From: Patescibacteria group bacterium
GTDB taxonomy: Bacteria; Patescibacteriota; Patescibacteriia; UBA2196
Assembly (NCBI GenBank): GCA_028748975.1
Contig: JAQTPI010000002.1
Span: 51,213-115,212, forward strand
Length of the DNA stretch: 64,000 nucleotides
Direction: 5' to 3'
The stretch's first letter is position 1, and every line of letters begins with the position of its first letter. The position numbers and the translations under genes are program-made. This document shows positions 4,625-58,365 of this stretch, piece after piece. The notes under the pieces were generated by a model. It saw only the letters and a program-made list of their open reading frames with translations. It was not told where the DNA came from and searched no databases.

Positions 4625-4653
4625 TTTTTGCCCAACTTTTTATAATTGCAGAC

Positions 4654-4987
4654 GCCACTTTCTTTGGACAAAGATTTTCTTTCGTTCTTTTTTTAGAAAA
4701 AAGAACCAAAAAAGCGCCGCTGGCAAAAAAGCTTCCACAAAATCGGCTGCGTCCTCGCTAAACCCGTTAACTCCTTGTTCCGCCTCTCCGCCGGCTGGCG
4801 GATCGGCGGAACTTCGTCAGACAGAAGCGGGTTTTTCAGCGCTGCGGCACTGAATCGCTCCGACTTAGCTCGATTTTGTCTGGAACCTTTTTTGAGGCGG
4901 CAGTCGCAACGACGGTTTATTTCTCGTGTTTTGTTAATTGTGTTTTGAGTTTTGTTTTAATGTTTTTATGTTTTAATGCTTTCATGG
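4654..4987. repeat. Element A copy 1 (about 330-nt structured intergenic repeat, candidate ncRNA)
   Basis: Collinear with 18890-19187. Begins gccactttctttggacaaagatttt. Helices gttccgcc/ggcggaac and ttcag/ctgaa are conserved with compensatory changes. Ends in gttttaatg(ttt)tatg motif. Confidence 0.6.
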
Positions 4988-5016
4988 TATAATAAAGTAA
5001 ATAATTGTGAATATCT

Positions 5017-6264: not shown

Positions 6265-6397
6265 TTTTTATAAGCACCAAATCCCAAATTACAAAATACA
6301 AACAAATTTCAAATATCAAATTTCAAATTCTAAATAAATTGGCGCTCCGCGCCAACCGTTTGTAATTTGGTGCTTGTAATTTGTCATTTACTCTTTT

Positions 6398-7369: not shown

Positions 7370-7370
7370 T

Positions 7371-7498
7371 TTCCCAAACAACCCCTCCGTCCCGTTGCTA
7401 CGGGACACCTCCCCTTCGAAAGGGGAGGATAGTGACGGCGTTATCCCCTCCTTTCGAAGGAGGGGTGGCCGATAGCAATCGGCCGGGGTGGTTGTAAA
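7371..7498. repeat. P-family palindromic repeat cluster (cccctcctttcgaaggagggg hairpins)
   Basis: Inverted GC-rich stem-loops. The same units recur at 13081-13112, 33017-33150, 38161-38270, 41821-41960, 44007-44110 and 46145-46190. Confidence 0.7.
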
Positions 7499-7515
7499 AG
7501 ACAAATAATATTACT

Positions 7516-8235
7516 ATGACCATCTCCATCGTTATTCCTTGTTACAACGAAGAAGAAAATATTCCGCCGTGTTTGGTAGCGATTTTGGGGCAAACGGAGC
7601 CGCCGGAAGAGGTGATTTTTGTAAATAATAATTCCACCGATAATTCGCGCGCCGTGGCGGAAAGTTTTATGCCGAAGTTTCAAGAAAAAGGAATAAATTT
7701 TCAAATTTTTGATGTGGCGGAGCAGGGAATTGTGCCAGCAAGAATTGTCGGTTATGGAGCGGTAGAAAATGATTTAATTGGTTCAATAGACATAGATACA
7801 ATAATAGACAGAAATTGGGTAAAAACCGCGAAGAATTATTTTTTTAATAATTTAGAGATAGTCGGTTGTGGCGGACCATTATTTTTTTCCAATCGTGGTT
7901 TGGTGTCAAAAATTCGCCTCATGTTAAATTTTTTTCTTTATAAGATTATAAATAAGTCCCTAATCTTATGGGGATGCAACAGTATCTTTAGAAAAAATAT
8001 CTATAAAAATATTTCTGGTTTTAACGGTTATAATATATTTTTTTCCGCCCTACATCTTGATTATCCGTACAGTGATAATTTTTTGACGGAAAGATTCAGG
8101 AGATGCGGAAAAATATCTTTTATCTTTTCTTTGCGGGCTTCCGGCGTGGCGCGTGGTGGAATGGGGAGACCGTGGCGCCAATCAATAGATTTTTGGCGAA
8201 TAAAATATTATTTCTGGAAAAAATACAAAGTATGA
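7516..8235 (+). CDS. glycosyltransferase family 2
   Basis: SIVIPCYNEE N-terminal GT2 signature. Acidic DxD-like region. 239 aa. Confidence 0.7.
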   Translation: MTISIVIPCYNEEENIPPCLVAILGQTEPPEEVIFVNNNSTDNSRAVAESFMPKFQEKGINFQIFDVAEQGIVPARIVGYGAVENDLIGSIDIDTIIDRNWVKTAKNYFFNNLEIVGCGGPLFFSNRGLVSKIRLMLNFFLYKIINKSLILWGCNSIFRKNIYKNISGFNGYNIFFSALHLDYPYSDNFLTERFRRCGKISFIFSLRASGVARGGMGRPWRQSIDFWRIKYYFWKKYKV

Positions 8236-9242
8236 AATTCAAACCTACTAAAACTCATTACACTATTTTTTTTGTCGTGGTGGCAGTTTTTGTGGCGATC
8301 ATTATTATCTCCAGTTGGAATTTTGGCGATGACCAGGAAATTATTTGGGGCGTGAATTTCAGCAAAAAACAGGCAGACAATTTAGGCGTGAATTGGAAAC
8401 TGGTCTATTGGAAAATGCTGGATGAATATAAATTTATAAAAATAATCAGGATGCCGATTTATTGGGATGAGGTGGAACAAGCCGCGGGCAAATACGTTTT
8501 TATGGATTATACCTGGATGATTGAAGAAGCGGCCAAAAAAAATATCAGTGTTATTCCAGTTTTGGGGCGCCGCGTGCCGCGCTGGCCAGAGTGCCACGAA
8601 CCCTGGTTTTATGGTTTAAAAAGTGAAGCAGAAAAAGAGCAGTTAATTTTAAATTTTGTGAGGGCGGAAGTGGAAGCTTTAAAAAAATATCCAAATGTAA
8701 TTCGCTGGCAAGTTGATAATGAACCGTTTTTGGACGTTTTTGGCGAATGTCCGGTGGGTAAAGATTTATTGGTACAAAAAGAAGTGGAGCTGGTGCGTTC
8801 ACTGGACAGCCGCCCCATTGTTATCACGGAGTCGGGCGAACTTTCCAGCTGGATGAAAGGCGCCAAATTGGCGGATGTTTTGGGCGTTTCTCTTTATCGT
8901 AAGACTTGGAATCCCAATTGGGGCTGGTTTCAATATCCACTGCCGCCGGCTTTTTATTATTACAAAGCAAAAATCGTGAAATTATTATCTGGTGTCAAGA
9001 AAATCATTAATACCGAATTGCAGGTGGAACCTTGGGCGCAAGACGGCGATTTGACCAAAATGCCTTTGGTGGACCAGCGTTATGCCATGGACTTAATCGG
9101 CGTAAAAAACAGCGTTAAGTTCGCCAAACACACCGGTTTTGACGAAATCTACCTTTGGGGTGTAGAATGGTGGTGGTGGCTGGGGCAGAAACAGGGGGAT
9201 TGGAGTTATTGGGAATTCGGCAAAACAATGAATAATGAATAA
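8232..9242 (+). CDS. membrane-anchored glycoside hydrolase-like protein (TIM-barrel, GH5-like NEP motif)
   Basis: Start moved to the MKFKPTK ATG that overlaps the stop of the upstream gene. N-terminal transmembrane helix. VDNEPF acid/base-like motif. Family assignment is tentative. Confidence 0.4.
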   Translation: MKFKPTKTHYTIFFVVVAVFVAIIIISSWNFGDDQEIIWGVNFSKKQADNLGVNWKLVYWKMLDEYKFIKIIRMPIYWDEVEQAAGKYVFMDYTWMIEEAAKKNISVIPVLGRRVPRWPECHEPWFYGLKSEAEKEQLILNFVRAEVEALKKYPNVIRWQVDNEPFLDVFGECPVGKDLLVQKEVELVRSLDSRPIVITESGELSSWMKGAKLADVLGVSLYRKTWNPNWGWFQYPLPPAFYYYKAKIVKLLSGVKKIINTELQVEPWAQDGDLTKMPLVDQRYAMDLIGVKNSVKFAKHTGFDEIYLWGVEWWWWLGQKQGDWSYWEFGKTMNNE

Positions 9243-18889: not shown

Positions 18890-19187
18890 GCCACTTTCTT
18901 TGGACAAAGATTTTTTGCCACCTTTTTATAAAGGTGGCGCCAAAAGCGCCGCTGTAAAAAAGTTTTGACAAAAGCGGCCTCGTCGTCACTAATTTTGTTA
19001 ACTCCTTGTTCCGCCTCGTTGCGCTCAACTCGGCGGAACTGCGTCAGACAGAAGCAAAATTTTTTTGACTGCGGTCAAAAATCGTTCCGACTCAGCTCGC
19101 TTTTATACCAAAACTTTTTTAAGGCGGCAGTCACGACGATAACGTAATTGTTTTAATGTTTTCATGTTTTAATGTTTTAATGCTTTT
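18890..19187. repeat. Element A copy 2
   Basis: Collinear with 4654-4987. Occupies the whole mreB-mreC spacer. Confidence 0.6.
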
Positions 19188-19973
19188 ATGTCTCACCGTC
19201 GAACTTTTTACATTATTTTGGCAATAGTTATTATCCTGGGCGGGCACTATTTGGGTTTGTGGCGGCCAATTGAGCGGCTGGCGACCAGAGCTTTGAGTTA
19301 TCCTTTAACCGCCGGCTATTCCTGGGGCCGTGATTTTTTTTCTTTTTTTGGCCGTTTCCAAAATAACGCCGATCTAAAAAAAGAAAACCAAGATCTAAAA
19401 GAACGAACAGCGGTTTTGGATGGAGAAATAATTTCTCTGAAGGAAGCCCTGCGCCAGAAAGGCATAACCGATGAGCAATTGGAATTTTTAAAGCAAGAAA
19501 AATTAAAAGCGGTTTTGGCGCGGGTGATTACTCGAGGCGTGGAAAATAATCCTAACCAGCTGATTATCGATAAGGGCGCGCGTGATGGGATTAAAAATGG
19601 TTTGGTAATTTTGGGCCGGGGCGGAGTGGTGGTTGGCAGGGTGACAAGAGTTGAAGACACCAGCGCCCAGATTTTACTTTTAACCGATACAAGCGTGGAG
19701 ATGGGCGCGGCAGATGTTGATGGCGGGCTTTTGGGCGTTGTTAAAGGCAATAAAGATTTAAGCTTGCGCCTTAATTATGTTTTGAAAGAGAAAAAAATAA
19801 CTAAAGGCGATATCATCATAACTTCCGGCGAGAAAGATTTGATACCGGCCGGACTTTTAATCGGAGAAATTGACCAGGTTTTTGAAGATGAGCGGGAAAT
19901 TTTTAAATCCGCTCGTTTGACGCAGCCGGTTGATGTTGCCAATACGGATATTGTGAGTGTAATTTTATTTTGA
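19188..19973 (+). CDS. mreC: rod shape-determining protein MreC
   Basis: N-terminal transmembrane helix, coiled coil, MreC beta-domain pattern. Operon position. Confidence 0.8.
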   Translation: MSHRRTFYIILAIVIILGGHYLGLWRPIERLATRALSYPLTAGYSWGRDFFSFFGRFQNNADLKKENQDLKERTAVLDGEIISLKEALRQKGITDEQLEFLKQEKLKAVLARVITRGVENNPNQLIIDKGARDGIKNGLVILGRGGVVVGRVTRVEDTSAQILLLTDTSVEMGAADVDGGLLGVVKGNKDLSLRLNYVLKEKKITKGDIIITSGEKDLIPAGLLIGEIDQVFEDEREIFKSARLTQPVDVANTDIVSVILF

Positions 19974-23498: not shown

Positions 23499-26225
23499 AT
23501 GTCTTTTTTGACCAAAATTTTCGGCGATGCCAATAAAAGAGTGACGGATAAACTGCGCGGGCGCGTGGAGGGGTTTTTAGTTTGGGAAGAAAAAGTAAAA
23601 AAATTAAAAGAAGAAGATTTTAAGAAAAAAACAGAAGAATTTAAGAAAAAACTGGCGGACAAAGAGTTTGAGGAACAGCAAAAAATTATGGACGAGATTT
23701 TGCCGGAGTGTTTTGCCCTGGTGCGCGAAGCGGCGCGGCGCACTTTGGGACAGCGCCACTATGACGTGCAGTTAGTTGCCGGTATGGTTTTGCATCAGGG
23801 TAATATCGCGGAAATGAAAACCGGTGAAGGCAAAACTTTGTCAGCCACGGCCGCGGTATATCTAAACGCGCTCTCCGGACGCGGGGTGCATGTCATCACT
23901 GTTAATGATTATTTGGCGCGGCGCGACATGGTCTGGATGGGACAGATTTATGATTATCTTGGTTTGACGGTTGGTTGCTTAAATCATGAAAGTGCTTTTT
24001 TATATGATTCGGAATTTAAAGGAAATCAGAAATCAGAAATCAGAAATCAGGGAGAAAAATTAGATATCAAACGCGACTCTGTCGGAGCTTTTAAAGTGGT
24101 GGAGGAATTTTTGCGGCCGGTGGAAAGAAGATTGGCGTACGCGGCGGACATTACCTATGGCACCAACAACGAATATGGTTTTGATTATCTGCGCGACAAC
24201 ATGGTGGCGGATTTGGAACAGAAAGTTCAGCGCGAACTGCATTACTCAATCGTGGATGAAGTTGACTCCATTTTGATTGATGAAGCGCGGACGCCACTGA
24301 TTATTTCGGCGCCAGACAGCGAGGCGACGGACAAATATCGCCAGTTTGCCGAATTGGTTTCGCGCTTGAGTGAAGGCGAGGATTACAATATTGATGAAAA
24401 AATGCGCGCGGCCACCTTGACGGAAGAGGGAATTAAAAAGATGGAAAAAATGCTCGGCGTGGAAAATATTTATACCGACCGCGGGGTGCGCGAAGTCCAT
24501 CACATTGAAAACGCGCTTAAGGCGCGCGTGCTTTTCAAATTAGACCGCGATTATGTGGTCAAAGACGGGGAAGTGATTATCGTGGATGAGTTTACCGGAC
24601 GACTGATGCTTGGCCGGCGTTATTCTGACGGGCTTCATCAGGCGATTGAGGCCAAGGAAGGCGTAAAAATTCAGCAGGAATCGGTGACCATGGCCACCAT
24701 CACTTTTCAAAATTATTTCCGCATGTATAAAAAATTGGCGGGCATGACGGGCACGGCGGCCACGGAAGCGGAAGAATTTGCCAAAATTTATAATCTTGAC
24801 GTGATTCAGATTCCAACCAATAAGCCGATGATTCGGGAAGATCTGGGGGATATAATTTTAAAAACAGAAAAAGAAAAATACGGCGCTATCGTGGAAGAAA
24901 TAAAAACGCGCCACCAATTGGGCCAGCCGGTTTTGGTCGGCACAATTTCCATTGAAAATAATGAACGTCTGGCCGAATTGCTTTCCCGCGAGGGTGTGGA
25001 ACACCGCGTCTTGAATGCCAAACAGCATGAAAAAGAAGCGGAAATTATCGCACAAGCCGGCCGTCTTAAGGCCGTAACCATTGCCACCAACATGGCTGGC
25101 CGCGGCGTGGACATAATTCTTGGTGGCAATCCTTCAACAGAAGAAGAACAGGAGGAAGTGAAGAAATTGGGCGGACTTTGTGTCATTGGCACCGAGCGGC
25201 ACGAAAGCCGGCGCATTGACAATCAACTGCGCGGCCGCACTGGGCGCCAGGGCGACCCGGGTTCTTCCCAATTTTTTGTTTCCATGGAAGATGATTTAAT
25301 GCGTATTTTCGGCGGGGAGAGAATGAAAAATTTGATGAACAGTTTGGGTTTGCCCGAGGGCATGCCGATTAAAAACAGGATGATTTCCAATTCCATTGAA
25401 AAAGCCCAACAAAAAGTAGAGGGGCATAATTTTGATATCAGAAAACACCTGGTGGAGTATGACGATGTGATTAATAAACACCGGGAAGTGATTTATAAGA
25501 AACGGAATCAAATACTAACAACTGACAATAAACAACTAACAACTGACAATAAACAACTAACAACTGACAATAAACAACAAATTTTATCATACGTGAAAGA
25601 AGAAATTGAGACAGTGGTTAAATTTCATACGCAAAGCGAAAATAATTGGAACTTGAAAGAAATCTATGAAGTGATGGATACGGTTTTTCCATTAACAGGC
25701 GAAGAAAAGATAGATTATGAAAGCATTAAAGCATTAAAACATGAAAACAAAACAGAGCAAGAAAAATTAATAGATTATCTTTTTGGCTTGGCGGAAAAAC
25801 AATATAATTTATTGGAAAATAAAATAAACAGCGATGAAAATTTGAAAAAGCAATTTAACGGCGCGGAACCGATGCGTTTGGTGGAACGGTCAATATTACT
25901 CCGCGCGATTGATATGCTGTGGGTGGAACACATTGACCAAATGGATCACATGCGCACGGGCATCGGACTCGTGGGTTATGGGCAAAAAGATCCGCTGGTG
26001 GAATATAAGCGCGAGGCCTACCGGATGTTTAATGATCTTCTAACTAATATCAGAAAACAGGTGGTATACAGTATTTTCAAAATATCTATTACTAACAACC
26101 AACAAACAACTAACAACTTACAACAACCATCAGCAGTTGATAAAAATCAAAAACACAAAGTCGGCAGAAACGATCCATGCCCATGCGGATCTGGCAAGAA
26201 ATACAAAAAGTGCTGTGGAAAATAA
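23499..26225 (+). CDS. secA: preprotein translocase subunit SecA (with lineage-specific low-complexity inserts)
   Basis: DEAD-like motor motifs. C-terminal zinc-binding [13 protein letters not shown]. Inserts at 24021-24053, 25512-25578, 25717-25750 and 26089-26128. Confidence 0.9.
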
Positions 26226-34856: not shown

Positions 34857-36698
34857 ATGTTAAGTATCAAAATCGCCGGACCCGCGGGGTTCGGAATAAA
34901 AGTCACTGGTTCAATTTTAGCCAAGGTATTTTTACGCCTTGGATATTCTGTTTTTGCCTACACCGAATATCCGTCATTAATTCGTGGCGGGCATAACACT
35001 TTTCAAGTGGACGTTAATGGAGAATGTCATCCCGAGGACTCCGACATCACGTCGGAAGACGAGGGATCTCGTAAGTTTTCTGGTGTCAACTCTCCCAGCT
35101 CCAAAGTGGACATTCTCATCGCTTTGACAGGTGAAGCTATAGAAAAAGAAAAAGATAATTTAAAGAAAGACAGCCTGGTCATTTGTGATGATACATTAAA
35201 ACATGAAAGCATTAAAACATTAAAACAAAAGGGAACAAATATTATTGATATTCCCTTAATTGAATTCGCCAAAAAAAATGGCGGAGAATTAATGAAAAAT
35301 ACAGTCGCGCTTGGAGCTTTGTTTGCCATCATCGATAATGTCATTCCGAGGAGCGGGGCGACGAGGAATCTCGTCGAAACATTAAATAAAGTACTCGAAG
35401 ATACTTTTGGTCATAAGGGCGTCGTGGCAGAACAAAACGTAAAAGCAGCGGCAGAGGGCTACGAGTGGCTAAAAAACAATAAAGACAAAATAAAATCTAC
35501 GAGATCCCTCGTCATTCCGACTGCGGCCGGAACTCCTCGGGATGACATTTTACTGCTCATCTCTGGCAACCAGGCCTGCGCTCTCGGCGCCGTGGCCGCC
35601 GGCTGCCAACTCTATTCTGCCTACCCCATGACTCCGGCCACGGAAATTTTGCATTATTTGGAAGCCAAACAAAAAGAAACAAAAATGATTGTGCACCAGC
35701 CCGAAGATGAAATTGCCGCCATTCACGCCGCGCTGGGCGCTTCTTTTGCCGGCGCGAGATCCGCAGTAGGCACTTCTGGCGGCGGTTTTGCCTTAATGAC
35801 CGAGGGACTGTCCTTGGCAGGGCAATTAGAGCTTCCTTTGGTCATTTTTGAGGTTATGCGCCCGGCTCCGGCCACGGGACTACCCACCTGGACCGAACAA
35901 GGCGATTTATCTTTTGTCCTTAATGCCGGCCATGGTGATTTTGCCAGAGCAATTCTGGCTCCCGGCAATCCGGCTGAATGTTTTGAATTAACTCAAAAAG
36001 CCTTCAACCTCGCTGACCAGTTTCAAATTCCGGTTTTTGTCATGACTGATAAATTGCTTGGTGAATCATATTACACCACTGATGAAAAAATATTTAATAA
36101 TATTGAAAAAGTGAATCGGGGAAAAATTATTGGTAATCAGAAATTAGAAATCGGAAATCAGGGACTAAACGAATTATTTGCTCGCTACAAACTGGAAAAA
36201 GATGGCGTGTCACCGCGCACCATACCAGGTACTGAAGGCGGCGAATATGTTGCCAATTCTGATGAACACGATGAGTTTGGAATCTCCAGCGAAAGCGCGG
36301 AAATAAGAAAAGAACAAATGGACAAACGCCTGAAAAAACTGGCGGAATTGCAAAAAGAAATTCCTCTGCCGACTTTGTATGGCCCGAAAGACGCGAAGAC
36401 GACTTTGGTTTGCTGGGGTTCAATGCTGGGAGCTTGTTTGGATACATTAAAACATGAAAGCATTAAAGCATTAAAGCAAAATAACATAAACATCCTGCAT
36501 TTTTCCTATATTTATCCGCTGCCAATGGGATTAACGGAATTTTTAAAGAAATTTAATAATTTAGTGCTGGTGGAAAACAACGCCAGCGGCCACTTTGGCA
36601 AACTCTTGCGCCAAGAAACCGGCATAGAGATTAAAGATAAATTATTAAAGTATGATGGGAGACCTTTCTGGTCAGACGAGATAGCCAAACTTTTATAA
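34857..36698 (+). CDS. 2-oxoacid:ferredoxin oxidoreductase, fused gamma-alpha subunit (carries six in-frame repeat insertions)
   Basis: Gamma domain N-terminus (AGPAGFGIKVTGSIL) followed by alpha domain (GNQACALGAVAAGC...YPMTPATEIL). Inserts at 35035-35081, 35193-35229, 35339-35374, 35500-35547, 36131-36162 and 36443-36476. Confidence 0.8.
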   Translation: MLSIKIAGPAGFGIKVTGSILAKVFLRLGYSVFAYTEYPSLIRGGHNTFQVDVNGECHPEDSDITSEDEGSRKFSGVNSPSSKVDILIALTGEAIEKEKDNLKKDSLVICDDTLKHESIKTLKQKGTNIIDIPLIEFAKKNGGELMKNTVALGALFAIIDNVIPRSGATRNLVETLNKVLEDTFGHKGVVAEQNVKAAAEGYEWLKNNKDKIKSTRSLVIPTAAGTPRDDILLLISGNQACALGAVAAGCQLYSAYPMTPATEILHYLEAKQKETKMIVHQPEDEIAAIHAALGASFAGARSAVGTSGGGFALMTEGLSLAGQLELPLVIFEVMRPAPATGLPTWTEQGDLSFVLNAGHGDFARAILAPGNPAECFELTQKAFNLADQFQIPVFVMTDKLLGESYYTTDEKIFNNIEKVNRGKIIGNQKLEIGNQGLNELFARYKLEKDGVSPRTIPGTEGGEYVANSDEHDEFGISSESAEIRKEQMDKRLKKLAELQKEIPLPTLYGPKDAKTTLVCWGSMLGACLDTLKHESIKALKQNNINILHFSYIYPLPMGLTEFLKKFNNLVLVENNASGHFGKLLRQETGIEIKDKLLKYDGRPFWSDEIAKLL

Positions 36699-36715
36699 AA
36701 ACAAAAAAAATAAGT

Positions 36716-36780
36716 TTATCCGCCGTAGTCCAATAGGGTTGAAAGTCCTCTATGGTTGATGGGGCGAAGGCGGATAAACA
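36716..36780 (+). repeat. Element C copy, followed by a duplicated gene 3' end (36795-36835)
   Basis: tttatccgccgtagt...gaaggcggataaac. Then atgatggccggccgttttggagcgatgagataa mimics the last codons of the upstream gene. Confidence 0.5.
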
Positions 36781-37063
36781 CAGAAAATATTAAAATATGA
36801 TGGCCGGCCGTTTTGGAGCGATGAGATAATAAAAGTAATAAGTAATAAGTAACTAGTAATAAGGGAGTTGTTAGAGACCCCTCTCCTTACCAAGGAGAGG
36901 GCAGGGTGAGGTTTATACACTTCGCCGATAGGCGCATATAATTTATTATTCGTACATTCGTCCCGAGTACTCGGGATTTGTAATTCGTAGTAGGCCGCTT
37001 TAGCGGCCAAAAAAAATCCGGCCACCAGAGATACTGGCAGCCGGTAAGGAGGAGGAAATTTGT

Positions 37064-37387
37064 TTAATTGTTTTCGGAATTTTCGAAACCGAGCATTTTG
37101 CTGACGGTCTCGGCGATTCCTTTTTCCGCCCAGATCCCCACGCAGCCGGGCATTTCAAGATCTGGCCGGTGCGGGGCGTAAACTCGTACGTATTCAAGAA
37201 AGATTCCTTGAATGCCCCCTTGGCGCAGTGCCATGATTTGTTTTATAGTGTCTCCACCAACCCTGGCATTGCGCAGAAAGACAAAAGAAGCGCCCTCCAG
37301 AACATCTGTTCTGGGTTCTGGCCAAGGGTGACGGTGGCACAAGGGACAACCACCAGGTTTGCCTTCTTCTCGGCACTTTGGACACAT
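37064..37387 (-). CDS. hypothetical protein with N-terminal Cys4 zinc ribbon
   Basis: CPKC...CPLC. Confidence 0.35.
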   Translation of the reverse strand: MCPKCREEGKPGGCPLCHRHPWPEPRTDVLEGASFVFLRNARVGGDTIKQIMALRQGGIQGIFLEYVRVYAPHRPDLEMPGCVGIWAEKGIAETVSKMLGFENSENN

Positions 37388-37555
37388 ATACCCTCCTTAA
37401 AAGCGTTATTTGAGCTTATTTTTACCCTCTTTTTGGGGATAATATTAATTATAGCATATCTAAAAATTATTGTCAAGCGAGTTATCCACAAAAAAATGGC
37501 CGGACAACTGAATATTGTCCGGCCAAAGAGTAGTGCTTAAATTAGGATGCTTATT

Positions 37556-37771
37556 TCATCTTTTATTAATGATGGCTGAAATGTATGAAACATCAATGAA
37601 AAGACCGATAATCGTGACTATAATTAGGAGAGGAAGCCAGCTGCCTCCAATTATCACGCATAGATATATTACCAGAACGGTTCTTGGGAGAAAGAAAGCA
37701 ACAATTAACCAAAAACAGATTCCCCAAAAAGTAAACATAGTTTCCTCCTTCTTGTTTGTGTGAATGTTCAA
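37556..37771 (-). CDS. small membrane protein
   Basis: Two hydrophobic helices. Hairpin terminator at 37497-37523. Confidence 0.3.
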   Translation of the reverse strand: MNIHTNKKEETMFTFWGICFWLIVAFFLPRTVLVIYLCVIIGGSWLPLLIIVTIIGLFIDVSYISAIINKR

Positions 37772-37807
37772 TTTAATCTAAAATAACCCTATCATATCTA
37801 AAATTTT

Positions 37808-38161
37808 ATGTCAAACCCTAAAATAGTAAAAGACAAAATTAAATTGTTGGAAATTGAAGAAATGGCAAAAAATCGTTTTGGCAACCTGGTTAAGGCCGTG
37901 GTTGATGTGGAACAAAATTTAATGGCGCTGGATGCCGAAATGCATGTGGACGAAGAACAGTTGCTTTTGAGTTCCGGTTCCAAACAAGAAAATCTTTGGG
38001 GTATAAATTTGTATCCAGAATTTTTTGGCAGGCCGGATTTTGTGGAATTTGATTCCATGATTAATCTGCGTCCCAATCAAAACAATCGCAGTCGGGGAGT
38101 GGAGAGTGTGGAAGTACAAAAAAAGATTATTGAAATTGTAAATAATTTAATAGAAAAATAG
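37808..38161 (+). CDS. hypothetical protein
   Basis: 117-aa ORF. Its promoter region is duplicated at 43020-43065. Confidence 0.45.
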   Translation: MSNPKIVKDKIKLLEIEEMAKNRFGNLVKAVVDVEQNLMALDAEMHVDEEQLLLSSGSKQENLWGINLYPEFFGRPDFVEFDSMINLRPNQNNRSRGVESVEVQKKIIEIVNNLIEK

Positions 38162-38278
38162 TATCCCCTCCTTTCGAAGGAGGGGTGGCCGATCGCAATC
38201 GGCCGGGGTGGTTGTGGTAAAATGTTTTTACAACCCCTCCGCGCCTCCCCTTCGAAAGGGGAGGATAATATAACGATT

Positions 38279-38608
38279 ATGTCGCAACAACACAAACAAA
38301 TGGCCGCCGGCCGCTGGCTGGAATTTTCTTTAATGGAACAACTCGCCAACATCGGCAGTGAAATTGAACGCGCCATTAAATGGAAAAACAAAAATAATTT
38401 GCCTTATAGCCAAAGCGCTTTTGAAAGAGGATTGGAACTTTTGGATTTGACCGTGGCTGATGAAAAAAACAAAACCCGCCTGAAAGAATTATTGCGCCTA
38501 AGAGAAATGCTCGCTGATTATTTTTTCTTTAATAATGAATATAAAACAGATGACCAAAGCTGGCAAAAATATTTTTACGCCTTCAACTACGCCGCGAGAA
38601 ATAAATAA
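38279..38608 (+). CDS. hypothetical protein
   Basis: Start moved past the P-family repeat to MSQQHKQ. Confidence 0.4.
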   Translation: MSQQHKQMAAGRWLEFSLMEQLANIGSEIERAIKWKNKNNLPYSQSAFERGLELLDLTVADEKNKTRLKELLRLREMLADYFFFNNEYKTDDQSWQKYFYAFNYAARNK

Positions 38609-38615
38609 AAAAAAT

Positions 38616-38641
38616 CGGCTGGCCAGATGGCTGGCCAGCCG
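38616..38641 (-). terminator. terminator hairpin cggctggccagatggctggccagccg
   Basis: T-run on the minus strand. The same hairpin recurs at 41984-42010 and 42694-42720. Confidence 0.6.
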
Positions 38642-38650
38642 AAAGATGAA

Positions 38651-38998
38651 TTAAAACCCAAGGAGTTGTAATGTTAACTTTGCAGCATCTTCCTTTTCGT
38701 CCACTTTATGGGTTGCCCCGTGGGCCAGTAATTCGTCATTAGAACGGGGCGTACCGGAAGAGGCGATAATGATTTTTAAACCAGATCGTGATAGTTTTTC
38801 TACAAAAGGGACGGTGCTCAGTGTTTCATTGTTGATACAGGCGTCTATAATCGCCGCGGCGATGTTAAGGTTTTCTTCAAAAAAGTGATTACACTCATAC
38901 ACCCTGGTAAATCTAACGACTTCAACCTTGCCAGAAAGTATTTTGTTAATCTTTTCGAAGTAAACATCTTCATCTTCTACAACTAGTACCTTTTTCAT
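38651..38998 (-). CDS. stand-alone receiver (REC)-like domain protein, paralogue 1
   Basis: KVLVVEDED acidic pocket. IIDAC (phospho-Asp position). IIASSG and HKVDK. 115 aa. Confidence 0.45.
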   Translation of the reverse strand: MKKVLVVEDEDVYFEKINKILSGKVEVVRFTRVYECNHFFEENLNIAAAIIDACINNETLSTVPFVEKLSRSGLKIIIASSGTPRSNDELLAHGATHKVDEKEDAAKLTLQLLGF

Positions 38999-39051
38999 CC
39001 TATTTTCCTCCTTGGTTTTTATAGGTTAATAAATTATTTGATTAATAAATA

Positions 39052-39080
39052 AGTATAGCACAATTAAAATTTTCTGTCAA
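39052..39080 (-). promoter_or_regulatory. minus-strand promoter ttgaca-17-tatact for REC paralogue 1
   Basis: Read on the reverse complement. About 90 percent identical to 42436-42464. Confidence 0.5.
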
Positions 39081-39157
39081 ACCGTGGTGAAAATAGAAAC
39101 TCGTTAACCCGTTAACTCGTTAATAAAATAATAATTAATTTTTTATATATTAAATCT

Positions 39158-41776
39158 ATGAGCGAACAAAAGCAATTCGTCTTCTCCTTTGAGGAAGGCA
39201 ACGCCAAAATGAAAGAAACTCTCGGCGGCAAGGGCGCCTATTTGGCCGAGATGACCCAATTTGGAATTCCGGTTCCGCCGGGCTTCACCATTTCAACCGA
39301 AGTGTGTGATTTGTATTACAAAAACAATCAAAAACATTCGGAAGAAATAATTAATCAAATTAACGCCAACCTTAAAAAGTTGGAAGAAAAAACCGGCAAA
39401 ACTTTAGGCGAGGCTATTGATCCTCTTTTGGTTTCCGTCCGCTCCGGCGCCGCGGTTTCCATGCCTGGCATGATGGACACGGTTTTAAACTTGGGCCTAA
39501 ACGACGAATCGGTGGCGGGTCTTGCAAAAAAAACTGGCAATGAACGCTTTGCCTGGGATTCCTATCGCCGTTTCATCCAGATGTTTGGCAGCGTGGTCAT
39601 GGGCTTGGAACATAATAAATTTGAAACCGAGCTTGATGCCATTAAACATAAAAATAATTTACTCGTGGACACTGATTTGGAAGCTCCGCATTTGAAAGAA
39701 TTGGTCGCCAATTACAAAACATTAATTCAAAAAGAAACCGGCAAGCTTTTTCCGAGTGATCCGCGCGAACAATTGCAAATGTCAATTGACGCTGTGTTTC
39801 GTTCCTGGAACAACGACCGCGCCATAACCTATCGCCGGCTAAATAACATCAAGGGACTCCTCGGCACTGCCGTCAATGTCCAGGCCATGGTTTTTGGCAA
39901 TTTGGGCGAAACCTCCGGCACCGGCGTTTGCTTTACCAGAAATCCGGCCACGGGCGAGAAAAAATTATATGGCGAATTCTTAATGAACGCGCAAGGCGAA
40001 GACGTGGTGGCGGGCATCCGCACCCCTCGGCCAATTGAAGAATTAAAGAGTATCATGCCCGACTGCTATAATCAGTTTGATAAAATTTATCATCAACTGG
40101 AAAATGATTATAAGGACATGCAGGATATGGAATTCACCATTCAAGAAGGAAAATTATACATTCTCCAAACCAGAAACGGCAAACGCACAGCCGCGGCTTC
40201 GGTTAAAATCGCGGTGGACATGGTTAAAGAAAATTTAATTGATGAAAAAACCGCCATCAAACGCGTTCTCGCCAATCAACTTGATCAATTGTTGCATAAA
40301 CAACTTGATCCGGTGGCCAAAAAAACAGCGGAAGTCTTAACCAAGGGTTTACCGGCGAGTCCCGGCGCCGCGGTGGGCCAGGCAGTATTTTCCGCCAAGA
40401 TGGCGCATGACTGGAACGCTGAAGGCAAAAAAGTTGTGCTAGTGCGCGCGGAAACTTCACCAGAAGACATTGAAGGCATGCACGCGGCCCAAGGAATTCT
40501 AACAGCGCGCGGCGGCATGACTTCTCACGCCGCAGTGGTGGCGCGCGGTATGGGCAAATGCTGCGTGGCCGGCGCCGGCGATGTCAAAATTAATGAACAT
40601 GAAAATTATTTTACTGTCGGCTCAATCAGAATCAATGAAGGCGATGTCATAACTTTGGACGGCTCCACTGGCGAAGTTTTTGCCAAGGCTTTGGGCGTGG
40701 TTGACCCCGAACTTTCCAACGACTTTAATGAACTCATGATTTGGGCCGATAAATACCGGAAACTGGGCGTGCGCACCAATGCCGACACTCCGCATGACGC
40801 TGAAGTGGCGCGCAAATTTGGCGCCGAAGGCATCGGCCTTTGCCGCACCGAACATATGTTTTTTAATGGCGACCGCATCAAAGCCGTGCGCGAAATGATT
40901 TTGGCGGACGATGTTGACGGCCGCAAACGCGCGCTTAAAAAACTCCTGCCATATCAAAAAGATGATTTTATTGGTTTATTTAAAGCCATGGACGGCTACA
41001 GCGTTACCATTAGATTATTAGATCCGCCGCTTCACGAATTTTTGCCGCAAACCGAAGAGGAAATTTTGGAATTGGCAGGCGAAATGAATGTCACGGTGGA
41101 ACACATCAAAAACAGAATTGAAGATTTAAGAGAATTCAATCCGATGCTAGGCCACCGCGGCTGCAGTGTGGTTGTGACTTATCCCGAAATTGCTGAAATG
41201 CAAACCGAGGCCATAATTTCCGCTGCCTGCGAACTCGCTAAAACCGGACAAAAAATCGTGCCGGAAATTATGATTCCATTGGTTGGTTTGAAACAGGAAT
41301 TGGATTTCAATGCCGAGATTGTCAGGCGCGTGGCGGAAGAAACCATGGAAAAATTCGGCGTGGAATTGGATTATAAAATTGGCACCATGATCGAAGTGCC
41401 TCGCGGCGCCTTGATTGCCGATAAACTGGCCGAAACCGCGGAATTTTTCTCTTTTGGCACCAATGATTTAACACAGATGGGTTTTGGATTTTCGCGCGAT
41501 GACGCTGGTAAATTTATTAAAGAATATCTGGCCAAAGGTTTATTTGAACATGATCCTTTTCAAACTTTGGACACTGAAGGTATTGGACAATTGATTAAAA
41601 TGGCAACAGAGTTGGGAAGAGCGACTCGCCCTGAAATCAAACTTGGCATTTGCGGCGAACACGGCGGCGACCCGGAATCCATCAAATTCTGCCACGCTGT
41701 TGGTTTGAATTATGTCAGTTGTTCTCCCTTCCGTGTGCCCATCGCCCGCCTCGTCGCCGCGCAGGCAGCTTTGTAA
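39158..41776 (+). CDS. ppdK: pyruvate, phosphate dikinase
   Basis: PEP-utilising enzyme motifs. Phospho-His region GGMTSHAAVVARG. Length 872 aa. Confidence 0.92.
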   Translation: MSEQKQFVFSFEEGNAKMKETLGGKGAYLAEMTQFGIPVPPGFTISTEVCDLYYKNNQKHSEEIINQINANLKKLEEKTGKTLGEAIDPLLVSVRSGAAVSMPGMMDTVLNLGLNDESVAGLAKKTGNERFAWDSYRRFIQMFGSVVMGLEHNKFETELDAIKHKNNLLVDTDLEAPHLKELVANYKTLIQKETGKLFPSDPREQLQMSIDAVFRSWNNDRAITYRRLNNIKGLLGTAVNVQAMVFGNLGETSGTGVCFTRNPATGEKKLYGEFLMNAQGEDVVAGIRTPRPIEELKSIMPDCYNQFDKIYHQLENDYKDMQDMEFTIQEGKLYILQTRNGKRTAAASVKIAVDMVKENLIDEKTAIKRVLANQLDQLLHKQLDPVAKKTAEVLTKGLPASPGAAVGQAVFSAKMAHDWNAEGKKVVLVRAETSPEDIEGMHAAQGILTARGGMTSHAAVVARGMGKCCVAGAGDVKINEHENYFTVGSIRINEGDVITLDGSTGEVFAKALGVVDPELSNDFNELMIWADKYRKLGVRTNADTPHDAEVARKFGAEGIGLCRTEHMFFNGDRIKAVREMILADDVDGRKRALKKLLPYQKDDFIGLFKAMDGYSVTIRLLDPPLHEFLPQTEEEILELAGEMNVTVEHIKNRIEDLREFNPMLGHRGCSVVVTYPEIAEMQTEAIISAACELAKTGQKIVPEIMIPLVGLKQELDFNAEIVRRVAEETMEKFGVELDYKIGTMIEVPRGALIADKLAETAEFFSFGTNDLTQMGFGFSRDDAGKFIKEYLAKGLFEHDPFQTLDTEGIGQLIKMATELGRATRPEIKLGICGEHGGDPESIKFCHAVGLNYVSCSPFRVPIARLVAAQAAL

Positions 41777-41983
41777 GCCAGAGTAATGTCATCCCGAGGA
41801 GTAGCAACGACGAGGGATCTCGCGGTTATCCTCCCCTTTCGAAGGGGAGGTGGTCCGATGTCGCATCGGACCAGAGGGGTTGTAATGTAGCGACGACAAC
41901 CACCCCGGCCGATTGCTATCGGCCACCCCTCCTTCGAAAGGAGGGGATAGCGACCGCCTAGTTAAAAAATAAATAAAAAAAAT

Positions 41984-42010
41984 CGGCCAACCAGATTTGC
42001 TGGCCAGCCG
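41984..42010 (-). terminator. terminator hairpin copy 2
   Basis: cggccaaccagatttgctggccagccg. Confidence 0.55.
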
Positions 42011-42019
42011 AAAGATGAA

Positions 42020-42382
42020 TTAAAACCCAAGAAATTGCAGTGCTAATTTCACCGCCTTGTATTTGTCCGCTTTGTGCGTCGCGCCGGCAGTGATTAATTC
42101 ATCGTTGTTTAAGGAAGAACCGGAAGCAGCGATGATTGGCTTTTTAAATCCGGATTTGACAATTTTTTCGATGAGCGGCATGGAATCTGGTTCGTCGCCT
42201 TCCACACAAGCGTCCATGATAATCACTTCAACGTCAGGATTGGCAAAAAAGAGATTTTCTCCTTCTTTCAACGTCTTGGCATGAAGAATTTCAATTTCAC
42301 TGTTCTTGTCGTGAAATTTGAATACTCGCTCCATTGGCGAAAAATCACTGTCCCTGTCTTCCACCACCAATACCTTTTTCAC
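42020..42382 (-). CDS. stand-alone receiver (REC)-like domain protein, paralogue 2 (GTG start)
   Basis: N-terminal MKKVLVVED and C-terminal LQFLGF conserved with paralogue 1. Middle region diverged. Confidence 0.45.
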   Translation of the reverse strand: MKKVLVVEDRDSDFSPMERVFKFHDKNSEIEILHAKTLKEGENLFFANPDVEVIIMDACVEGDEPDSMPLIEKIVKSGFKKPIIAASGSSLNNDELITAGATHKADKYKAVKLALQFLGF

Positions 42383-42435
42383 TTAATTTTCCTCCTTGGT
42401 TTTTATGGGTTAATAAATTATTTGATTAATAAATA

Positions 42436-42464
42436 AGTATAGCATAACTAAAATTTTCTGTCAA
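42436..42464 (-). promoter_or_regulatory. minus-strand promoter ttgaca-17-tatact for REC paralogue 2
   Basis: Near-identical to 39052-39080. Confidence 0.5.
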
Positions 42465-42470
42465 TTAGTT

Positions 42471-42683
42471 TGTCATCCCGGGCCGTGACCCGGCCTGCCT
42501 GCCCGCTTCGCAACGAGGCGAGCCGGCGAGGCAGGGATCCAATAGTTTGTCATTCCGACCGACCTCTATGGCCGCTTTGAGTGGAGGAATTCCTCCGTCG
42601 TCGTAAAACCACGAAGGGATCCTTCGACTTCGGCCTCTCCGCCAGCTGGCGGAGAGGCCTCCGCTCAGGATGACAAAAAATAA
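42471..42683. mobile_element. composite MITE-like elements (gtcatcccgg ... ctcaggatgac)
   Basis: Two nested units, each with terminal inverted repeats. Confidence 0.55.
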
Positions 42684-42730
42684 TAAAAAAAATCGGCTGG
42701 CCAGATTGGCTGGCCAGCCGAAAGGATTCT

Positions 42731-42961
42731 TTAAAGATTGATCGACACCTCTTGTTTTTCGGGGTTGTATGTGGTGTATCGCAGAACATCTCTTTTGAGT
42801 TCGGCTGACAATACTCCGTTTTCAAGTAAGCCCCGTTCTTCTAGTAGTCGTCTCATTTTTTCTGATATGACATAAGTGTCATCATTGCTTTTTCTTACCA
42901 AGACATGCAGAATTGCTGGTGTTTCATACACCATTCCAGCGAAATCTTTTTTCGTTAACAT
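42731..42961 (-). CDS. hypothetical protein (76 aa from an internal start)
   Basis: Same terminator hairpin (42694-42720). Promoter related to 37775-37815. Confidence 0.35.
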   Translation of the reverse strand: MLTKKDFAGMVYETPAILHVLVRKSNDDTYVISEKMRRLLEERGLLENGVLSAELKRDVLRYTTYNPEKQEVSINL

Positions 42962-43130
42962 GTTACCCCCCTCTTTTTGTCGTTTGCCCGTTCTTGGGCG
43001 GTTGTAAAAATGAACTATTTTATATAAAATAACCCTATCATATCTAAAATTTTTTGTCAAACCATTCGCTATCCAGTCTGTCATTTTTCACTTTTCATTA
43101 TTCATTTTTCATTATTTATAATACAAACCT

Positions 43131-45874: not shown

Positions 45875-46017
45875 TTTTGCCTCCTTTGGCTTTTTGTTGT
45901 TGGTTTGGGTTGATGGAATGTACTAAAGGCATTGTAGCATGTTTAAAAAATCCTGTCAAGTGGTTTTTGTGTCATCTCGGTTTTAGGTCGACTTGCCGAT
46001 AGGCAAGAACCATAAGT

Positions 46018-46074
46018 TTATCCGCCGGAGTATCAAAAGACTTTTAGAGAACGCAGGCGGAGAAACTTAATTTT
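46018..46074 (+). repeat. Element C copy
   Basis: tttatccgccggagt...gcaggcggagaaacttaatttt. Confidence 0.55.
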
Positions 46075-56505: not shown

Positions 56506-58326
56506 ATGCCAAAATGGATTTTGAAAGAAAAATACACTTCCGAATTTGCGGAAAAACTGCCGGGATACTCCCCGGTGGTTTGGCAATTGTTATATGACCG
56601 CGGATTAGATAATCAGGAAAAAATCGACGAATTTTTCAATCCTGACTATTTGAGTGATATTCACGACCCATTCCTGTTTAAAGACGCTAAAAAGGCCTCT
56701 AAATGCGTTTTAGAGGCCATTGAAAAGCAGGAAAGTATCCTTGTTTTCGGCGATTATGACGCTGACGGCGTTACCGCCAGTGTTGTTATGGAAAAAACTT
56801 TGCGCAAGCTGGGCGCCCAAAATGTTGATGTTTTTATCCCGCACCGCGAATTGGACGGCTATGGCCTAAATTTGGAAAAAGCAGAAGAGTTGGCCAAAGA
56901 AAAAAAATATAATTTAATCATTACAGTTGACTGTGGTATTACCAATTTTGAGGCGATAGAAAAATTAAATTCCGCGGGGATTGATACGATTGTCACCGAC
57001 CATCATTTGGCCACCGAAAAACTGCCACCGGCTTTTGCCATTCTTAACCCGTCAGTGGAAAGTGAAATTTATCCTTTTAAAAAATTGGCTGGCGTGGGCG
57101 TGGCATTCAAATTGGCGCAAGCGCTGTTTCGGGAGAAACAAGAAAAACAAGAAAAAAGTGAAAAACAAGAAAAGGGGAAAAAAGAAAAAAAGGAATTACA
57201 TAGTTACGAAGCTTTTGAAAAATGGCTTTTGGATTTGGTCACGCTCGGCACTATCGGTGATGTGTCACCGATTCTGGGCGAGAACCGCACCCTGGTAACC
57301 TATGGCCTGAAAGTTTTAAACAAAACTCCGCGCAAAGGTTTGCAGGAATTAATCCGCGTTTCCAGTTTGTCCGATGGCGAAGAATTAAAAAATCTTCCGC
57401 TCGGCGCGGATTTGTATGATTTAAATATCAGAAATATTTCTTTTCAACTTGTTCCGCGCATCAATGCTGCCGGCCGAATTGACCATGCTTCCTTGGCGTT
57501 GGAATTATTATCTACCGAAGATGAAATTGAAGCTATTGCCTTGGCGCGCGACATTCAGGAAAAAAATTTACAGCGCCAAAAAATTGTGGAAGTTGCCATG
57601 AAAGAAGCCAAAGAAATTTTGGGCGAAGTTACGGACGATAAAAAAATTCTCATTGCGGCGAGCGCCAATTGGCCAGTGGGCATTGTCGGTTTGATTTCCG
57701 GCAAATTAATGGATGAATTTGCCCGGCCGGTAATTTTGATGAATCAGGACGGTGAAAATTATGCCGGTTCCGCGCGCAGTATTGCTGAATTTAATATTAC
57801 CGAGGCTTTAGGCGAATGCGGCGAATTTTTAGAAAGATTTGGCGGCCATGCCAAAGCTGCCGGATTTGGCATCAAAGGCAAAAAGAATTATAATAAATTC
57901 ATTGCCAAAATGGAGGCGTTGGCAGAGGAAAAATTAAAAGACGTGGAACTTACGCCGACGATTGAAATTGACACGGAAATTAAATTTTCAGATTTGAATT
58001 GGGAACTTTGGGATGAAATTAAAAAATTTGAACCCTTTGCCGAAGCCAACCCCTTGCCATTATTTTTGGTAAAAAATTTGAAAGTGGAAAGCGTAGAAGA
58101 AATGGGCAAAAACGGCGGGCACCTGCGTTTTTATTTTTCTGACGGTGCTCTGGCGCATAAAGCCATTTCTTTTGGCACGGCCGTTGAGTGGAAAGATAAA
58201 ATTAAAAGCGGCGACATAATTGACGCTGTGATGGAATTCGGAATAAATGAGTGGAATGGCAACAGGGAATTGCAGTTTAAACTGGTGGACTTTAAGCCGG
58301 AGGGTTGTCATCCCGAGAAGGCCTGA
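56506..58326 (+). CDS. recJ: single-stranded-DNA-specific exonuclease RecJ
   Basis: DHH motifs (DYDADG, DHH). DHHA1 GGGH-like. EKQ repeat insert at 57134-57193. Last 6 codons and stop lie inside a MITE. Confidence 0.85.
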   Translation: MPKWILKEKYTSEFAEKLPGYSPVVWQLLYDRGLDNQEKIDEFFNPDYLSDIHDPFLFKDAKKASKCVLEAIEKQESILVFGDYDADGVTASVVMEKTLRKLGAQNVDVFIPHRELDGYGLNLEKAEELAKEKKYNLIITVDCGITNFEAIEKLNSAGIDTIVTDHHLATEKLPPAFAILNPSVESEIYPFKKLAGVGVAFKLAQALFREKQEKQEKSEKQEKGKKEKKELHSYEAFEKWLLDLVTLGTIGDVSPILGENRTLVTYGLKVLNKTPRKGLQELIRVSSLSDGEELKNLPLGADLYDLNIRNISFQLVPRINAAGRIDHASLALELLSTEDEIEAIALARDIQEKNLQRQKIVEVAMKEAKEILGEVTDDKKILIAASANWPVGIVGLISGKLMDEFARPVILMNQDGENYAGSARSIAEFNITEALGECGEFLERFGGHAKAAGFGIKGKKNYNKFIAKMEALAEEKLKDVELTPTIEIDTEIKFSDLNWELWDEIKKFEPFAEANPLPLFLVKNLKVESVEEMGKNGGHLRFYFSDGALAHKAISFGTAVEWKDKIKSGDIIDAVMEFGINEWNGNRELQFKLVDFKPEGCHPEKA

Positions 58327-58365
58327 TAACAATCAGGCCGACGAGGGATCTCGCGGATGACAATT
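58305..58365. mobile_element. MITE (ttgtcatcccgag ... gggatctcgcggatgacaa) supplying the recJ stop
   Basis: Perfect terminal inverted repeats. A second related unit lies at 58400-58440. Confidence 0.6.

Follow-up and report, generated by a model that had tools for sequence, protein, structure and literature searches.

A duplicated korA 3' end around a hairpin element in a Patescibacteria genome: a possible scar of gene-end replacement

Introduction

Why should a gene be followed, behind its own stop codon, by a second version of its own 3' end? The question is raised by korA in the window, the 64,000-nucleotide (nt) stretch of a Patescibacteria (candidate phyla radiation, CPR) metagenome-assembled genome that was analyzed here (contig JAQTPI010000002.1). 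The gene encodes the fused gamma/alpha subunit of a 2-oxoacid:ferredoxin (acceptor) oxidoreductase, and a degenerate copy of its last 15–20 codons lies beyond a 66-nt imperfect hairpin referred to as Element C. The translated korA end is called copy 1 (c1), its downstream counterpart copy 2 (c2). Comparison loci that were fetched for the analysis carry L-numbers, among them L005 (GCA_040961635.1, from NCBI) and L006, a Logan assembly of the same organism as L005; coordinates are window positions unless a locus is named. An original prediction, made from the window alone, had read the arrangement as a target-site duplication caused by Element C or, alternatively, as an element with a replacement gene end of the kind that integrative elements carry at tRNA genes. 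With a probability of roughly one half, c2 is the displaced original end of korA, and c1, the adjoining spacer and Element C form an inserted block that brought a replacement end with it.

Layout of the duplicated gene end

The locus contains the following features, all on the plus strand:

34857–36698 (+): korA, open reading frame (ORF) of 613 amino acids
36639–36698 (+): c1, in frame with korA, with its core at 36639–36683 (KLLKYDGRPFWSDEI) and the tail AKLL plus TAA stop at 36684–36698
36699–36713 (+): A-rich spacer between the korA stop and the hairpin, as read from the sequence (AAACAAAAAAAATAA)
36714–36779 (+): Element C, 66-nt imperfect hairpin, defined by its fold, a 12-copy alignment and a covariance model
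36780–36783 (+): junction bases ACAG between hairpin and c2, the same in L005 (window/L005 alignment)
36784–36831 (+): c2, with its core at 36784–36828 (KILKYDGRPFWSDEI), in the +1 frame relative to korA (alignment and frame analysis)
36833–36865 (+): heptamer-repeat element (AAGTAATAAGTAATAAGTAACTAGTAATAAGGG) of a repeat family of the window genome, which replaces the original tail and stop of c2

The two cores align without gaps in their best register, with 34 of 45 nt identical (76%) at an offset of 145 nt, and both code for K[L/I]LKYDGRPFWSDEI. As a control, the c1 45-mer was placed against 122 other 1-kb windows on both strands, where it reached at most 26/45 matches (mean 21.9). A peptide-level control took each ORF of 100 or more amino acids and matched its 22 C-terminal residues to the 700 nt that follow (BLOSUM62). 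The korA tail scored 90 and the next independent ORF 33, while a score of 39 belongs to the same repeat on the other strand. Hence, the strings that the original prediction had quoted for the korA end and its degenerate copy are both present, their similarity exceeds chance on a proper alignment, and the duplication is real and statistically secure. The copy does follow Element C as had been proposed, but the element does not lie directly at the korA stop, since the 15-nt A-rich spacer intervenes.

Ten of the 11 differences between the cores fall in synonymous codon pairs, including AGA/CGG with two changes and TCA/AGC with three. Read from c1 to c2, the mismatches are T/A, G/A, G/C, A/C, A/G, T/G, C/T, T/A, C/G, A/C and C/T. 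The longest identical runs measure 8 nt (TATGATGG) and 7 nt, which is short for the attachment-site (att) core of an integrative element, later divergence being possible. Neither an ORF nor an integrase or recombinase gene was found between the copies (100 nt in the window, about 90 nt in L005).

The translated c1 reads KLLKYDGRPFWSDEI-AKLL*, so that korA terminates in KLLKYDGRPFWSDEIAKLL*. Its protein is identical to P0001, annotated as '2-oxoacid:acceptor oxidoreductase subunit alpha [Patescibacteria group bacterium]' with PF01558 and PF01855, and the KorA completed by c1 has the length of its homologues. A C-terminal motif of the K[YF]DGRPF type is found in 108 of 120 KorA homologues, so its loss would probably matter. 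In its own frame, c2 reads KILKYDGRPFWSDEI-IKVISNK*; it lacks a canonical start codon, and two in-frame stops lie upstream of it, inside Element C. The junction string of the window is GGCGGATAAAC-ACAG-AAAATWTTAAAATAYGATGG, in which AGAAAAT resembles the AAG AAA AT of native genes in L007 and L013, so that a microhomology joint is possible at this point. Downstream, homology to L005 ends at 36828. The heptamer-repeat element that follows has an inverted copy at 14082–14125 and a related copy near 17715–17745.

The same architecture in a second genome

In L005, whose KorA is about 75% identical to that of the window, the same order is found: korA end, stop, spacer, Element C, ACAG and c2. The spacer counterpart is AAAAATAAAA, the offset between c1 and c2 is 140 nt, and the repeat spans 54 nt, since it includes a stop codon of c2's own. 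Here, 14 of 45 nt differ between c1 and c2, 12 of them in synonymous codon pairs. The arms of Element C are identical in the window and L005, the right arm at 29 of 29 positions, while the tip differs at about half of its positions.

Acetate kinase is 63% identical between the window and L005 and 84.5% identical between the window and L007, and the 3' third of korA contains one lineage-specific insert common to the window and L013 and a different one common to L005 and L007. Judged by these comparisons, the lineages of the window and L005 are not sisters. Their relatives L007, L013, L014 and L009 have a single korA end without Element C, and the nearest available relatives carry neither a trace of c1 nor the block.

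Between the window and L005, c1 differs at 8 of 45 positions (37/45 alike) and c2 at 4 of 45 (41/45 alike), all of these four synonymous. The two c1 sequences agree only where a sole alternative codon exists (TTC, GAC) or at the common one (AGA), and they differ wherever several codons are available (GGG/GGA, CCT/CCC, TCA/TCC). Together with the differing apical part of Element C, this codon pattern suggests separate histories of the two blocks.

Two scans of viral contigs for further instances gave none, and the peptide encoded on the reverse strand of c2 plus Element C had no match in a protein search. In other genomes, the neighbors of DUF5674 genes, one of which lies downstream of korA in the window, are located away from korA. 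A Logan contig of the window organism (L023) stops short of the c1/c2 site.

As a separate observation on korA, a six-genome alignment contains a 40-codon stretch at codons ~560–600 in which L005 and L007 share 91% nt identity and 82% third-position identity, compared with 78% and 61% for the whole gene. This hints at a recent recombination between lineages inside korA.

Which copy is original

Several lines of evidence, all drawn from sequence comparison, point to c2 as the original korA end. The first concerns its surroundings. In L005, the stop of c2 is followed by GTCATCCCGAACTTGTTTCGGGATC and then by a GIY-YIG gene, and exactly the same sequel, GTCATCCCGAACTTGTTTCGGGATC plus a GIY-YIG gene, is found behind the native korA stop in L014 and L020. 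Among these three genomes, the GIY-YIG protein and KorA show amino-acid identities of 78 vs 77% and 62 vs 65%. Because the GIY-YIG gene diverges in step with korA, the downstream context of c2 in L005 appears resident rather than recently mobile. As for the gene itself, L020 contains two GIY-YIG genes, at 4434–4742 behind korA and at 6389–6697 behind korB, which are 90% identical to each other; the hairpin GTCATCCCGAACTTGTTTCGGGATC precedes only the one behind korA.

Codon choice points the same way. The codons of c2 are common in the host (GGC, CCG, TTT, GAT), while those of c1 are rarer (GGG, CCT, TTC, TCA, GAC, AAG). Against all 15-codon windows of host genes (867 for the window genome), the percentile rank of c1 is 5.7 in the window and 6.3 in L005, and that of c2 is 65 and 82, respectively. 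Moreover, each of the six core codons that can be recoded is as far apart in c1 and c2 as synonymy permits (P 0.0016–0.011 under host usage).

A third line is the similarity to relatives. Compared with L007 in blocks of 45 nt, the window has 7 and 5 mismatches in the two blocks directly ahead of c1; c1 itself has 14 and c2 has 6. Thus, c2 continues the similarity trend of the korA body, and c1 breaks it. The same comparison is less clear for L005, with 10 and 11 differences upstream, 15 in c1 and 6 in c2. In addition, c2 of the window differs at 6 of 45 positions from the native ends of both L007 and L013, and a 27-nt stretch of it (TTAAAATATGATGGCCGGCCGTTTTGG) equals the native end of the distant homologue L020 at 27 of 27 nt. 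The codon states of c2 are those of distant native korA ends.

The Element C family

At korA, Element C consists of an outer helix P1 of 11 base pairs (GTTTATCCGCC/GGCGGATAAAC, 36714–36724 with 36769–36779), a 3x3 internal loop (GTA/GAA), an inner helix P2 (GTCC/GGGC) and a variable apical part; its fold is predicted at -27.3 kcal/mol (z = -4.8). Twelve copies in five sequences were collected by a metagenome scan with the core 20-mer and by pattern searches of the fetched loci; the scan itself returned three loci, none of them at korA. In the alignment of the 12 copies, 87% of cells pair, compared with 42–51% when the partners are slid. As most of the pairs are invariant, covariation is weak, and a role as RNA cannot be told apart from a role as DNA. 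A covariance model built from the 12 copies recovers three in the window, at 11601, 36708 and 46010. Rfam gave no match at gathering score in the whole window and no relevant one at E<=10 in 36600–37100.

Eight copies are followed by a gene (window 11607–11656; L012 136, 2848, 5213, 5576, 6211 and 7349; L010 827), and all eight stop 5–12 nt short of the ATG that opens a long same-strand ORF. The six copies in L012 occupy successive intergenic spaces of a ribosomal-protein operon with unusually long spacers (78–137 nt). Because of this 8/8 placement before an ATG, Element C is an oriented leader module and not a randomly placed repeat. It looks like an undescribed family of leader or translation-initiation hairpins of Patescibacteria, whose right arm (AAGGCGGAG/T) may hold a putative ribosome-binding site. 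The copy at korA is one of three orphans that have no gene behind them.

Two further observations concern the family. The orphan at 46016–46066 has the same spacer (CTTAATTTT) as the copy at 11607, with neither start codon nor gene, the next long ORF being 458 nt away. Furthermore, weaker reverse-strand matches to the model lie 50–100 nt upstream of several forward copies (window 11484–11553 (-); L012 2739–2809, 5126–5195 and 7258–7324 (-); L007 766–835 (-)), of which the one in L007 falls within the acetate kinase gene. The leader may thus form part of a more extensive inverted pair.

A possible replacement scar and its rivals

In the preferred reading, a block of about 145 nt (140 nt in L005), made up of a recoded but protein-identical gene end with its stop, the A-rich spacer and the Element C leader hairpin, would have been placed in front of the original korA end. 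This would have cut c2 from the reading frame and left it as an untranslated relic, with KorA unchanged because the block brings a complete C-terminus. The donor could have been a diverged korA allele whose stop is followed by the Element C leader of the next gene in its operon; since Element C normally precedes a gene, such an allele is the simplest source of the block. The finding that Element C at korA has no gene behind it is expected if it was part of a donor intergenic leader. The left joint would then have formed by homology within korA, and the right joint by an illegitimate or site-specific event at the AGAAAAT match between the spacer of the leader and ...AAG AAA AT... of the recipient, just upstream of the last ~17 codons of the latter. 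We infer which copy entered, how it recombined and that c2 is not expressed. In outline, this agrees with the proposal that the element brought a replacement gene end: c1 has atypical codons in both genomes and is an outlier against related genes in the window, and c2 looks like the original end of the host in its original context.

Several points weigh against this reading. Only two instances were found, the phylogenetic signal of 45–60 nt is weak, and the supposed donor allele, with a c1-like (type-A) end followed by Element C, was not found. The tails of c1 look lineage-typical rather than foreign, because the last four c1 codons of the window (AAACTTTTATAA) are identical to those of L013, and the L005 tail NELI resembles NELL in L009 and NKLI in L014. 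Furthermore, the junction of Element C, ACAG and c2 is identical in two lineages whose c1 sequences differ at 8 of 45 nt, which calls for recurrence directed by a site or by microhomology, or for spread by homologous recombination with later turnover. Together with the codon pattern of the c1 sequences, the shared junction suggests that the blocks either entered separately, directed to one site, or go back to an old insertion allele, spread by homologous recombination, whose c2 is 'refreshed' from each new host. Finally, c2 has neither an amino-acid change nor an indel in either genome. Between the two c2 sequences, none of the 30 sites at the first two codon positions has changed, as opposed to 4 of the 15 third positions (Fisher p ~0.009), and third-position identity is 73%, compared with 71–72% in neighboring genes. 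This pattern fits a very recent displacement and, equally, selection on c2.

Conceivably, the roles of the copies are reversed: c1 would be native, and the right part of Element C with c2, originally accompanied by the hairpin and the GIY-YIG gene, would be the foreign edge of a homing-endonuclease-like cassette that arrived behind an Element C of the host. In its favor, L014 and L020 have the GIY-YIG gene and its upstream hairpin immediately after the korA stop, and L005 has them after c2. The tails of c1 appear typical of their lineages, the korA–korB interval is a variable island, and the right arm (29/29) and c2 (41/45) are closer between the window and L005 than c1 (37/45). Yet host codon usage is found in c2 and not in c1 in both genomes, it is c2 that continues the similarity of the korA body to the relatives of the window, the GIY-YIG gene co-diverges with korA and does not look recently mobile, and a GIY-YIG gene, a remnant of it or a copy of the hairpin was looked for in the window and is absent. 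We regard this reversal as doubtful. An old duplication in place, whether tandem or associated with an insertion, seems to us unlikely as well. Here, both copies would be under selection, c1 being driven away from c2 synonymously and c2 having acquired a second role, for example as a micro-ORF starting at ATA/ATT, as a nucleotide signal for the downstream genes or as a spare end that turns coding when recombination between the repeats removes Element C. Such a history would account for c1 being maximally different from c2 and for the c2–c2 changes being confined to third positions (0/30 and 4/15), at a third-position identity (73%) near that of the neighbors. The Ile codon of c2 (ATA/ATT) lies 9 nt past the hairpin, within the 5–12 nt spacing of start codons, and the 27-nt core containing GGCCGGCC is unusually conserved among native ends, too. 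Against it, c2 has no canonical start and is preceded by two in-frame stops, no promoter-like site is predicted in it, its tail is not conserved between the genomes and was overwritten by a repeat element in the window, the closest available relatives lack both the architecture and any trace of c1, and the statistics on c2 rest on four substitutions.

The target-site duplication of about 40 nt that the original prediction favored, here considered at ~45–60 nt with Element C transposing into the korA end and the copies diverging afterwards, could explain why direct repeats flank an element with terminal inverted repeats and why sites without the element are single-copy. It is nevertheless very improbable. 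Divergence between the copies is 24%, and all but one of the 11 differences are synonymous, so that synonymous divergence is near saturation while c2 is intact; this contradicts such an origin because the copies would start identical and the non-coding one would decay at least as fast as synonymous sites. The left repeat is separated from the element by the 15-nt tail with its stop and the 15-nt spacer, the right one by 4 nt. Moreover, c1 codons are atypical, and c2 of the window differs less from c2 of L005 (4/45) and from native korA ends in relatives (6/45) than it does from the c1 beside it (11/45). The same architecture was sought at nine other copies of Element C (window 11607 and 46016, one in L010, six in L012), where flanks match over only 6–12 nt in non-adjacent positions. 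Least credible of all is an assembly artefact in which two strain variants of the korA end were joined in tandem. Both genomes are metagenome-assembled, and contigs of the window organism do break at repeat elements (L023), but the copies are separated by a structured 66-nt element, their 24% divergence is far above strain level, and a different organism shows this architecture and junction in assemblies from NCBI (L005) and Logan (L006) alike, which makes an artefact unlikely.

Further candidates were tried and rejected. A template/variable repeat pair of a diversity-generating retroelement does not fit mismatches that are synonymous and not adenine-specific, and a limited scan of the neighboring ORFs gave no reverse-transcriptase match. 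Read-through, frameshifting or bypass from korA into c2 is inconsistent with offsets of 145 and 140 nt, which give different frames, and with two c2-frame stops inside Element C. As for c2 being the remnant of a second, tandem korA that lost everything between its start and end, real korA 5' sequence shares only GAAAATAT with it, and no locus has Element C in front of korA. Membership of c2 in the GTCATCCCGAG repeat family, with which it shares the 10-mer TGGAGCGATG at 17550, was dismissed since the rest of that element is missing from c2. A promoter embedded in c2 was not predicted, and the 'ATGTCAA' repeats, considered as duplicated gene starts, are -35 boxes (TTGACA) of promoters for antisense genes. 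Lastly, the comparison with a homing endonuclease cassette with a co-converted flank came out negative, as the GIY-YIG gene is not in the window and is as diverged as korA in L005, L014 and L020.

Returning to gene-end replacement, an extension of it may be worth stating, speculative and rather improbable as we consider it. The ~140-nt block could be a miniature mobile unit without a recombinase of its own that repeatedly enters the same korA codon across Patescibacteria lineages, its deliberately recoded end making the insertion harmless and resistant to loss or re-targeting. In a variant of this idea, c2 would itself be selected, for example as a micro-ORF expressed from the Element C leader.

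Comparison with known systems

Phage 21 at icd of Escherichia coli invites the same kind of comparison as the element e14 at this gene. With e14, the displaced C-terminal part of the gene survives past the element as the fragment pseudogene icdC, and a working chimera arises when the two ends recombine (PMC13626634). The element measures 15 kb and carries a site-specific recombinase between ends that share an att core. As at icd, the insertion at korA would lie in the 3' part of a metabolic gene and bring a gene end with it, leaving the protein intact and the original end as a fragment, and the two ends differ mostly at synonymous sites. Unlike at icd, only a stop, a spacer and the 66-nt hairpin separate the ends (145 nt offset), and the longest identical run is 8 nt. 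From integrative elements at tRNA genes, to which the site had been likened, it differs in having a hairpin of only 66 nt and no integrase between the copies, and in identical runs that are short for an att core.

Homology-facilitated illegitimate recombination in natural transformation combines one homologous anchor with one microhomology joint. Its type of product, a partial duplication of the recipient, fits the locus, and AGAAAAT is a candidate for the microhomology. It is a mechanism and not a sequence family, and it may be linked to the korA site on these grounds. Such events are normally one-off, unlike the same junction found here in two non-sister lineages.

Being an imperfect palindrome of 48–66 nt with many intergenic copies, Element C resembles REP/BIME, ERIC, Correia and Rickettsia palindromic elements as well as miniature inverted-repeat transposable elements (MITEs). 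It departs from these small repeats in its fixed orientation and position (8/8), in the lack of target-site duplications at the checked copies and in having no Rfam family. None of the elements named is known to bring along a replacement gene end. A further parallel is offered by free-standing GIY-YIG homing endonuclease cassettes that co-convert flanking markers, such as seg/mob of phage T4, since small GIY-YIG genes lie directly behind the korA end in three related genomes, in L005 behind c2. Homing replaces flanking sequence and does not duplicate it. In contrast, the flank is duplicated at korA, and the GIY-YIG gene co-diverges with korA and is not in the window.

Neighboring genes and other repeats

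The distant relatives L015 and L016 have the arrangement pta-ack-korA-korB-recJ. Closer relatives, like the window itself, have a variable set of inserted genes between korA and korB (among them DUF5674, pyruvate phosphate dikinase, small antisense genes and GIY-YIG genes). While korA and korB are adjacent in distant relatives, they are about 6.4 kb apart in the window (36699–43130); the interval of L005 spans 5786–8711. That of the window holds DUF5674, a conserved small gene, the dikinase and antisense genes. Between lineages, DUF5674, the small gene and the dikinase show 85–95% amino-acid identity and 68–77% third-position identity, compared with 61–84% and 48–62% for ack, korA and korB. 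This likeness suggests more recent sharing or stronger constraint. On the other side of korA, a gene of the PD-(D/E)XK nuclease family (PF13366; 34390–34809) separates ack from korA in the window and L020, and is not found in L007 or L005.

Other small repeats surround and enter korA. An AT-rich repeat with a period of 8 nt (CATTAAAA/CATGAAAG units) occurs twice in frame in the gene, at 35183–35261 and 36434–36512, where it encodes TLKHESIK[T/A]LKQ; the second insertion is shared with L013 and is not found in L005, L007 or L014. Related copies at 4944–5001, 17799–17843, 19140–19205 and 25705–25783 are intergenic and occur in both orientations. A hairpin of the GTCATCCCGAG family (35495–35547, which pairs with 58306–58358) is likewise in frame, encodes ...STRSLVIPTAAGTPRDDI... 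and lies within the stretch of korA that links the PF01558 and PF01855 domains. In this tolerance inside coding sequence, the small repeats of the window genome are like Rickettsia palindromic elements. Within another element of the GTCATCCCGAG type, the sequence at 17540–17563 (ATGGCCGTTTGGAGCGATGGGATC) resembles c2 (ATGGCCGGCCGTTTTGGAGCGATGAGATA); the shared 10-mer occurs in the window only in this region and in c2 (0.09 expected by chance).

Finally, a repeated module at 37448–37476 (-) contains a perfect TTGACA-17-TATAAT promoter directed leftward to small antisense genes. The promoter-module family has further members at 37756–37817, 39022–39083, 42406–42467 and 43002–43063. One copy has its -35 box overlapping the DUF5674 start codon (ATGTCAA), and the same modules flank antisense ORFs in L005.

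Implications

As read here, the new feature of this locus would be the replacement of a gene end with no integrase-bearing element involved, in connection with a family of leader hairpins not described before. If the replacement reading is true, a block of only ~140 nt would be enough to swap a gene end and leave its predecessor in place without a recombinase between the copies. The principle seen with e14 at icd would then extend to the small hairpin modules of Patescibacteria intergenic regions. In addition, recombination between diverged lineages at korA–korB, an insertion hotspot in energy metabolism, would have a dated marker in this duplication. For annotation, it advises caution: short protein-like fragments behind such genes may be displaced originals and not decayed paralogues.

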